This document shows, piece by piece, positions 29,905-30,867 of a stretch of DNA of 64,000 nucleotides (the first letter of the stretch is position 1; each line of letters starts with the position of its first letter). Below the pieces are notes generated by a model. The model was not told the origin of the DNA, made no database searches, and saw only the letters and a list, made by a program, of their open reading frames with translations. The DNA is from a virus, in the IMG/VR virus record IMGVR_UViG_3300045988_115054, positions 61,443-125,442 of that record, one strand, 5' to 3'. Position numbers and translations under genes: made by a program.

Positions 29905-30867
29905 ATGAGACAGATTACAGACACACATACAGGAGAAATTATCTCCGATACAGATTTAACATTAGAATACTTATTCGTTGGTGATTATGGCAAGGAAAAC
30001 AACATTAAGGCAGATTTTCTTGGGTATGATAAACGAATTGAAAAAGTTGAACATAAACCAGTTGATATTAGAGAAAAATTAGTTGTGACTGTTTCGTCGC
30101 AGAAAGGTTGCCCGATGCATTGCAATTTCTGTGATTGCCCTAAACTTGGATTTAAAGGAAACGCATCGTTGCCAGAGTTAATGATGGAGATCACTTCTGG
30201 AATTGCTTTATCAGGAATCAGACATGGAGAACGATTAAATGTACATTATGCAAGAATGGGAGAGCCTACATTTAATCAAAATGTAATTGCTTCGGCTAAA
30301 CAGATTGCACATATGTTAGCAGATCCAGACAGTGATATACATTTCAACACATATCATCCAGTAATTTCTACAATGATGCCAAAGGCAAATAATAATTTAA
30401 AAGAATTTTTACATAAATGGGTTAAAACTGGATTTGAATATGGTGGAGAAGATGGCTTTGGTCTTCAGTTCTCTATCAATACTCTTAATGAAGAACAAAG
30501 AAATGAAATGTTTCGAGGATGTTCATTATCTTTAACAGAGATCGGAGGCATTATTGATTGGTTGCCAATGCCAAAGAAGCGTAAGTATACATTGAATTTT
30601 GCTGTTACATCCAAAAGTAATTTAGACGTAGATTTGATGAACAAGTATTTCGATAAGGAAAAATGCATTGTCAAGATTACTCCTATCCATGAAACAGTTG
30701 AAGCAGTTGACGAAGGATATGAGATTGTAACAGATTTTGATGTATATGAAAAATTTGAACAACCACTTGTAAAAGACGGTTGGGATGTAATTGTATTTGT
30801 TCCATCGAAAGAAGAAGACGCAGATAGAATTACATGTGGAAATTCATTAATTGCATTAGGAAATTAA
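29905..30867 (+). CDS. radical SAM enzyme of the RlmN/Cfr family (N-terminally truncated relative to RlmN)
   Basis: VVTVSSQKGCPMHCNFCDCPKLGFKGN matches the RlmN/Cfr cluster motif [27 protein letters not shown]. MGEP is present. The C-terminal DADRITCGNSL matches the RlmN methyl-carrier Cys motif DIDAACGQL. An AAGGAAGGAGAG RBS is present. Confidence 0.7.
   Translation: MRQITDTHTGEIISDTDLTLEYLFVGDYGKENNIKADFLGYDKRIEKVEHKPVDIREKLVVTVSSQKGCPMHCNFCDCPKLGFKGNASLPELMMEITSGIALSGIRHGERLNVHYARMGEPTFNQNVIASAKQIAHMLADPDSDIHFNTYHPVISTMMPKANNNLKEFLHKWVKTGFEYGGEDGFGLQFSINTLNEEQRNEMFRGCSLSLTEIGGIIDWLPMPKKRKYTLNFAVTSKSNLDVDLMNKYFDKEKCIVKITPIHETVEAVDEGYEIVTDFDVYEKFEQPLVKDGWDVIVFVPSKEEDADRITCGNSLIALGN

Follow-up and report, generated by a model that had tools for sequence, protein, structure and literature searches.

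The described enzymes that lie closest to the gene studied here are RlmN and Cfr. RlmN is a class A radical S-adenosylmethionine (SAM) methylase that modifies A2503 of 23S rRNA and A37 of tRNAs (PDB entries 3rfa, 5hr7 and 6fz6), and Cfr methylates C8 of A2503 and gives multidrug (PhLOPSA) resistance (PDB entry 9p0p). Both have an N-terminal domain, which in RlmN is helical, and both have a methyl-carrying cysteine (Cys355 in RlmN, Cys338 in Cfr) and a resolving cysteine (Cys118 in RlmN, Cys105 in Cfr). The RlmN C118A variant reportedly traps a covalent enzyme-RNA adduct, which is said to be the way in which structure 5hr7 was obtained. In Cfr, the same position has been replaced by alanine (C105A); minimal inhibitory concentrations (MICs) for the variant are equal to those for an empty vector and mass spectrometry shows no methylation, but the variant still leaves an aberrant reverse-transcriptase stop (Kaminska et al., PMC2836569). 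The same study places a positive, putatively RNA-binding surface on the N-terminal domain of Cfr, whereas the radical SAM core is negative (PMC2836569). Here we analyze a gene, termed rSAM, that occupies positions 29905..30867 on the plus strand of a 64,000-nucleotide stretch of viral DNA (positions 61,443 to 125,442 of IMG/VR record IMGVR_UViG_3300045988_115054; this whole stretch is referred to as the window). An earlier note, made from the DNA letters, had described it as a phage-encoded RlmN/Cfr-family methyltransferase without the N-terminal domain. We find that rSAM very probably has the RlmN/Cfr fold and represents a distinct, uncharacterized subfamily with one cysteine, which many gut phages encode and which lies outside the RlmN and Cfr families, and that it may act on a free purine or 7-deazapurine base.

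rSAM and its placement within the RlmN/Cfr fold

The open reading frame (ORF) begins with an ATG codon and encodes 320 amino acids; a Shine-Dalgarno sequence, AGGAG, can be read off the sequence 5 nucleotides before the ATG (29895..29899, plus strand). Searches of a 5.8-billion-protein set return 6904 homologs at E ≤ 1e-3, counted as clusters at 90% identity, which form 579 clusters at 50% identity, and proteins 99-100% identical to rSAM are encoded on IMG/VR viral contigs of 82-165 kb, mostly from a single metagenome dataset (3300045988). Because the ORF has a Shine-Dalgarno sequence, many homologs and conserved cysteines, it is a real, selected gene. The conserved cysteines fall into two groups. 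C69-x3-C73-x2-C76 (30109..30132) forms the radical SAM [4Fe-4S] cluster motif within residues 63-78 (VSSQKGCPMHCNFCDC), as the earlier note had stated, and Cys311 lies within the C-terminal sequence DADRITCGNSL (residues 305-315). All four residues are retained in 120 of 120 close homologs; among viral homologs the CxxxCxxC motif is invariant (250 of 250 aligned sequences), and the position of Cys311 is a cysteine in each of the 169 that extend that far. The segment T310-C311-G312-N313 (30832..30843) aligns with the ‘ACGQ’ of RlmN that contains Cys355, which bears out the proposed equivalence of the C-terminal motif to the methyl-carrying motif of RlmN. Residues 117-124, RMGEPTFN (30253..30276), align with ‘GMGEPLLN’ of RlmN and contain a GEP motif that we take, by analogy to radical SAM enzymes generally, to bind SAM. 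With its cluster site and GEP motif intact, rSAM has the appearance of a functional radical SAM enzyme. Its AlphaFold2 model has a mean pLDDT (the confidence score of the model) of 93.5, no membrane segment is predicted in the protein, and it is acidic, with a pI of 5.2; net charges of -2 to -20 are found for 10 of 11 proteins of the phage clade.

The curated models for radical SAM enzymes match rSAM poorly. Pfam Radical_SAM scores 20.8 bits against a cutoff of 29.5, the NCBIfam RlmN model TIGR00048 scores 35.5 bits against 290 and covers only residues 47-134, the second RlmN model, NF008396, scores 28.4 bits against 633, and the Cfr models score 21-24 bits against cutoffs of 468-550 (23.6 vs 530; 21.2 vs 550; NF000424, TIGR04432). 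The scores thus lie 8- to 25-fold under every curated RlmN/Cfr cutoff. A full-length match is obtained to PHROG 24834 (E 2.5e-80, residues 17-316 of 320), of which rSAM is a member; this PHROG is of function unknown, and so names the family without explaining it. When rSAM alone is compared with PDB sequences using phmmer, E. coli RlmN is found at E values of 5e-7 to 9e-7 over residues 34-134, and when the search is made with a profile of 32 diverse family members, RlmN and Cfr chains are found at E 2e-19 to 1e-16 over the whole core, with the C-terminal cysteine of the family placed on Cys355 in the RlmN sequence ‘AACGQL’. Full-length homology and the closest structural similarity both fall to RlmN/Cfr over other radical SAM families; QueE and viperin, which the earlier note had named as families whose assignment would contradict its reading, were rejected, as neither is the best profile or fold match. 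That reading stands with regard to the fold and the Cys355 equivalent, but not with regard to membership in the curated RlmN and Cfr families. PADLOC models, scanned at E values up to 0.01, match neither rSAM, nor its flanking genes, nor P0230, a representative of the cellular clade described below; the sole match is a marginal one between a thioredoxin-reductase-like partner from a cellular operon and PDLC01086 (E 0.0005, 17.5 bits).

The resolving cysteine and the N-terminal domain are missing

The position occupied by Cys118 in RlmN and Cys105 in Cfr is Thr62 in rSAM (30088..30090). It is a threonine in 120 of 120 close homologs, and across 252 viral loci from 13 lineages it is most often Thr (125), Gly (82) or Ala (40). 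Cysteine is found at only three of these loci, all in a separate two-cysteine clade; among the family representatives that were examined, it never occurs in the phage clade or in the QueT-fused and isochorismatase-linked cellular clades. The earlier note had named a failure of the two catalytic cysteines to align with those of RlmN as grounds against its reading; Cys355 does have a counterpart, Cys311, but Cys118 does not align with a cysteine. The claim that the N-terminal RlmN domain is absent is upheld: alignments begin only at residue 77-103 of RlmN and at about residue 70 of Cfr, such that the helical domain (about residues 1-60) has no equivalent. In its place, the 58 residues ahead of the core contain beta strands and a clade-specific insert, residues 26-54 (GDYGKENNIKADFLGYDKRIEKVEHKPVD; 29980..30066), which was delineated using the 32-member alignment and an 11-sequence alignment of the phage clade. 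The insert is retained in the phage clade and common to the QueT-fused cellular clade, and is absent from the clade linked to isochorismatase and thioredoxin-reductase-like genes; G26, D27, Y28, G29, K30, N33, K35, A36, F38 and L39 are invariant in the phage-clade alignment.

These substitutions bear directly on the proposal that rSAM is a true A2503 methylase, acting at C2 or C8, and possibly a mobile Cfr-like multidrug resistance determinant. RlmN is its best match in both sequence and structure, and the Joint Genome Institute (JGI) pipeline labels close homologs ‘23S rRNA (adenine2503-C2)-methyltransferase’. However, Thr62 replaces the cysteine whose mutation in Cfr abolishes both methylation and resistance, the N-terminal domain is absent, the model scores fall far under their cutoffs, and the tree described below separates rSAM from RlmN and Cfr as well as from the phage clade with two cysteines. 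Because of the first three of these features, the canonical two-cysteine methyl transfer to A2503 is not available to rSAM. Given the behavior of Cfr C105A, a canonical A2503 methylase or a mobile PhLOPSA determinant is very unlikely, as is a Cfr-like resistance phenotype, and we do not think that A2503 of 23S rRNA is the substrate.

Relationship to other RlmN-like proteins

A neighbor-joining tree of 295 aligned columns, computed with no bootstrap, resolves five groups, in which the rSAM clade stands apart from the RlmN and Cfr to which the earlier note had assigned it. In the first group, RlmN and Cfr are joined by a two-cysteine ‘mini-RlmN’ clade from Salmonella, Vibrio and Stenotrophomonas phages, the second is a short clade of crAss-like and Yersinia phage proteins that have no C-terminal cysteine, the third is a cellular clade of bacteria and archaea, the fourth comprises fusion proteins of Firmicutes, and the fifth is the phage clade with rSAM, which joins the fourth and has insert 26-54 in common with it. 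Thus, unlike RlmN, rSAM has the insert, is acidic, and belongs to a separate clade, the sisters of which carry a fused transporter, while it has neither the helical N-terminal domain nor Cys118; relative to Cfr, it keeps the equivalent of C338 but not that of C105 or the N-terminal domain.

The mini-RlmN proteins (~310 residues, 22-25% identical to rSAM) of Salmonella phage Arash, Vibrio phages such as 496E54-1 and Stenotrophomonas phage BUCTxx99 are also encoded by phages and are without the N-terminal RlmN domain. They differ from rSAM in that both cysteines are retained (‘VMCVSTQ’ and ‘GGGCGQL’) and that they cluster with RlmN/Cfr. Their genes are located at 4944-5873 of locus L003, 3944-4870 of L179 and 4914-5873 of L002. 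In the Vibrio phages the gene comes after Prs and a Nampt-like gene, and in BUCTxx99 it lies inside a tRNA array, where its annotation as a ‘prohibitin family protein’ looks like a misannotation.

Cellular relatives

The closest cellular sisters of the phage clade are fusion proteins of ~815 residues from metagenome-assembled genomes of Firmicutes, in which an rSAM-like domain is flanked by an N-terminal membrane domain and a C-terminal PNP_UDP_1 domain. Their identity to rSAM is 36-41% for P0133, P0142 and P0140 and 34% for P0156. QueT is the best Pfam match of the membrane domain in eight of eight proteins, with E values down to 8e-15. The C-terminal domain of P0142 exceeds the equivalog cutoff for methylthioadenosine/S-adenosylhomocysteine (MTA/SAH) nucleosidase (224 vs 169 bits), and that of P0133 is more diverged (81 bits). 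This QueT-rSAM-nucleosidase architecture is found in more than 70 protein clusters, and in one case the nucleosidase is encoded by a separate, adjacent downstream gene. The fusion genes (L084-L086 and L093) stand alone amid housekeeping genes. MTA/SAH nucleosidase removes SAH and 5'-deoxyadenosine, which are by-products of class A methylases.

The second cellular clade has a different context. In one genome scan, whose 80 loci (L004-L083) all belong to this isochorismatase/thioredoxin-reductase-like clade, the gene is preceded at 78 loci by an isochorismatase-family hydrolase and/or a thioredoxin-reductase-like flavoprotein. The hydrolase is nearest to EntB (E 2e-29), the best match of the flavoprotein is thioredoxin reductase (E 3e-37), and radical SAM proteins fused to an isochorismatase occur occasionally. 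The module of hydrolase, flavoprotein and one-cysteine rSAM (e.g. positions 4509-6939 of L014) has a wide distribution that covers Chloroflexota, Deltaproteobacteria and Myxococcota, Zixiibacteriota, Planctomycetota and Thermoplasmata archaea, and we know of no function assigned to it. Collectively, the cellular contexts favor small-molecule chemistry.

Two known systems suggested by these contexts were considered and rejected. The gene trio of the fusions is analogous to that of the queuine lyase QueL, a radical SAM enzyme (CD1684 of C. difficile) whose queK-qrtT-queL operon also encodes a queuosine-precursor energy-coupling factor (ECF) transporter and a nucleosidase (PMC11477304). No homology of rSAM to CD1684 or the C. 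spiroforme structure (PDB 6p78) was found, and QueL belongs to a different fold subgroup. A link to nicotinamide adenine dinucleotide (NAD) metabolism was raised by the Prs and Nampt genes beside the Vibrio phage homolog and by the isochorismatase-family partners, which might have been nicotinamidases. It was ruled out because the hydrolase is nearest to EntB-type isochorismatases and cysteine hydrolases, at the E value given above, as compared to 1e-9 for nicotinamidases, and it is further weakened by the location of the Vibrio protein in the separate two-cysteine clade. rSAM is not RlmN, Cfr, QueL, QueE or viperin.

A proposed reaction on a free purine-like base

We propose that rSAM uses Cys311 in a radical reaction whose substrate is a free purine or 7-deazapurine base destined for tRNA modification, a reading to which we assign a probability of roughly 35%. 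In this scheme, the cluster would reductively cleave SAM to produce a 5'-deoxyadenosyl radical, and Cys311 would take part by carrying the methyl group, as its RlmN counterpart does, or by donating a hydrogen atom. Since the two-cysteine release step cannot occur, a different base or an external thiol would free the product, or else the reaction would be one other than methyl transfer. The substrate would be a base or nucleoside that is free and purine-like, the most likely candidate being a precursor of the queuosine family (7-deazaguanine), and the product would feed the modification of host and phage tRNAs. We base this choice of substrate on three features: the fusion of the sister proteins to a QueT-type importer and to an MTA/SAH nucleosidase, the acidity of the phage proteins and their lack of an RNA-binding module.

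Phage neighborhoods and alternative substrates

No neighboring gene is conserved beyond closely related genomes at the 81 loci of the window's clade, and the 252 viral loci have no universal partner; the enzyme must therefore work with host components. This self-sufficiency in phages also favors the free-base model. Several kinds of neighbor nevertheless recur, within a few kb of the gene, in unrelated phage lineages. Homologs lie in or beside tRNA arrays in several lineages (viral loci L094-L339; e.g. L254, L171, L132, L182 and L002), with tRNA genes at 57 loci (304 tRNAs in 3.48 Mb) and gaps of 9-300 nucleotides to them in several contexts. RtcB is encoded within 10 kb at 14 loci from 5 lineages, Thg1-like proteins are found at 12 loci from 2 lineages, a PolyA_pol/CCA-adding-type protein is found in 1 of 148 neighbor-cluster representatives that were scanned, and a Ro60/TROVE gene adjoins the homolog at L090. 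The gene is also found as the first one past a cro-like repressor in a temperate phage, near Dcm methylases and SAM synthetase (L091), and in Bacteroides phage Versailles, a 58-kb siphophage whose homolog is 47% identical to rSAM. These associations point to tRNA biology, for which the neighborhoods provide some support. As a separate observation, a second small radical SAM protein of ~243 residues with the motif CDCHCKYC is encoded within 3.5 kb of the RlmN-like gene at 51 loci from 3 lineages (L180-L231 and related, e.g. 4847-5578 of L190).

The tRNA-related neighbors raise the main rival to the free-base reading, namely that rSAM is a non-canonical tRNA enzyme that acts directly on a purine such as A37 or another anticodon-loop base, with Cys311 as methyl carrier; a different residue, or else a thiol or thioredoxin of the host, would resolve the adduct. 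Such an enzyme would tune decoding or shield tRNAs from anticodon nucleases. The characterized enzymes of this fold are all known to act on RNA, with RlmN also methylating A37 of tRNAs, and the strict conservation of Cys311, the embedding of homologs in tRNA arrays, the RtcB, Thg1-like, CCA-adding-type and Ro60/TROVE neighbors, and a RlaP gene in the window itself are all in keeping with it. However, the missing N-terminal domain is the bearer of the positive surface in Cfr (PMC2836569), the protein is acidic, and loss of the Cys118 equivalent abolishes methylation in Cfr. Moreover, the nearest sisters in cells carry a membrane importer on the same chain, which would be odd for a tRNA enzyme, and tRNA arrays lie in accessory regions with many unrelated genes, for which the counts have no background control. 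We consider direct action on tRNA possible but doubtful.

Several observations weigh against the free-base reading. The identification of the substrate is indirect, and to our knowledge every characterized member of the RlmN/Cfr fold acts on RNA. QueT was assigned through a match to the Pfam family rather than through a demonstrated specificity, and two of the four full-length fusions fall below the Pfam QueT cutoff. Rfam scans for preQ1, SAM and other riboswitches found none at three fusion genes, the region upstream of L084 being scanned at E values up to 1 and L085 and L086 being scanned whole at gathering thresholds. The tree that joins the phage clade to the fusion proteins has no bootstrap support. 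Within the phages, no queuosine or DpdA genes are annotated in positions 7765-58097 of the 58097-nucleotide Versailles record, and no TGT, DpdA or Que family is present among the 25 Pfam families listed, of 26 found, for the window's ORFs. The neighbor frequencies are raw counts with no background control, and the tRNA-array and RtcB neighborhoods fit direct action on tRNA equally well. In addition, the tRNAs of the queuosine family (Asn, Asp, His and Tyr) make up 15% of neighboring tRNAs, which is no enrichment.

Two further substrates were weighed. In the first, rSAM would place a methyl group on a carbon of adenine or of some other purine as a protection against restriction, either in phage DNA, as the earlier note had also suggested, or in the nucleotide pool (dNMP/dNTP). 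Some homologs do lie beside DNA methylases and SAM synthetase, as at L091, and the window has genes for nucleoside 2-deoxyribosyltransferase-like proteins and for a DnaE-type polymerase of its own. We nevertheless give this reading little weight: no kinase or dNTPase partner for nucleotide-level modification is conserved alongside, the gene is also present in the 58-kb siphophage, which has only ordinary DNA methylases in the part of the record noted above (7765-58097), and we know of no precedent for such an enzyme. In the second, the target of rSAM would be a lipid, quinone or membrane protein, and the enzyme would work in concert with SPFH/flotillin scaffolds encoded beside it. SPFH/flotillin/prohibitin-like genes are found within 3 kb at 30 of the 252 viral loci, including the lineage of the window and a crAss-like phage, TerC/TerD and LemA are among the other neighbors, and the cellular sisters are membrane-anchored. 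As these loci are a minority, the counts were made with no background control, no membrane segment is predicted for rSAM, and the SPFH genes may merely occupy the same accessory region, we judge a membrane-associated role to be the least probable of the readings considered here.

Other features of the window

The window has a G+C content of ~33%, is strongly skewed toward purines and carries nearly all its genes on one strand. Downstream of rSAM, a flotillin-like SPFH protein (31286-32746, plus strand; Band_7, E 1.6e-23, and Flot) is followed by a coiled-coil protein whose N-terminal part includes a hydrophobic segment (32761-33495, plus strand). SPFH genes of this kind are also seen at 2296-3513 of L178 and at loci L104-L141, and the lineages that have them include the crAss-like Kehishuvirus, in which the rSAM homolog is only 26% identical.

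The tRNA that the earlier note had placed about 3 kb downstream exists, at 33567-33705 on the plus strand and 2.7 kb from rSAM (Rfam tRNA, 46.4 bits), and is interrupted in the anticodon loop by an A+T-rich insertion of 67 nucleotides, far too short for a group I intron. Default ARAGORN misses it, reporting zero tRNA genes in the whole 64 kb; in its intron mode the program reports a tRNA-Tyr with the unusual anticodon AUA and an intron between positions 32 and 33. Twelve related phage contigs of IMG/VR carry the same interrupted tRNA, and no uninterrupted copy is found in any of them.

The window also encodes two Tad2-like (anti-Thoeris) proteins, MazF-like and HicB-like proteins, two sigma-70-type factors, an integrase, a DnaE-type DNA polymerase III alpha subunit, DnaB, a LAGLIDADG endonuclease, RlaP, DHH and Metallophos phosphoesterases, and the nucleoside 2-deoxyribosyltransferase-like proteins mentioned above.

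Implications for the family and its phages

The A2503-methylase label that these abundant phage genes carry in annotation pipelines invites their reading as Cfr-like resistance genes of gut phages, and the evidence argues against it. The one-cysteine family instead represents a large natural branch of the RlmN fold that is without both Cys118 and the N-terminal domain, and which therefore implies new chemistry or a new substrate: because the resolving cysteine is never kept and the RNA-binding domain is absent, its chemistry or its substrate must differ from those of the characterized members of the fold. We tentatively entertain the broader view, with somewhat more doubt than belief, that this is a new family with a new reaction, comprising either C-methylases or lyases of free (7-deaza)purines or Cys118-less enzymes that are resolved in trans. 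If the first variant is true, the family would provide a second, non-orthologous route of queuosine-precursor salvage, with import by the fused QueT domain, and its capture by gut phages would serve to increase or change the Q-type modification of tRNAs, both those of the host and their own. If the second is true, a covalent intermediate would be resolved by a thiol or by a thioredoxin-reductase-like partner. The QueT and MTA/SAH nucleosidase fusions, the isochorismatase/thioredoxin-reductase-like operon, and the phage copies located in tRNA arrays and beside RNA-repair genes provide starting points for identifying the substrate, which could reveal either a salvage step for queuosine or purines that is new, or a new means by which phages manipulate tRNA.

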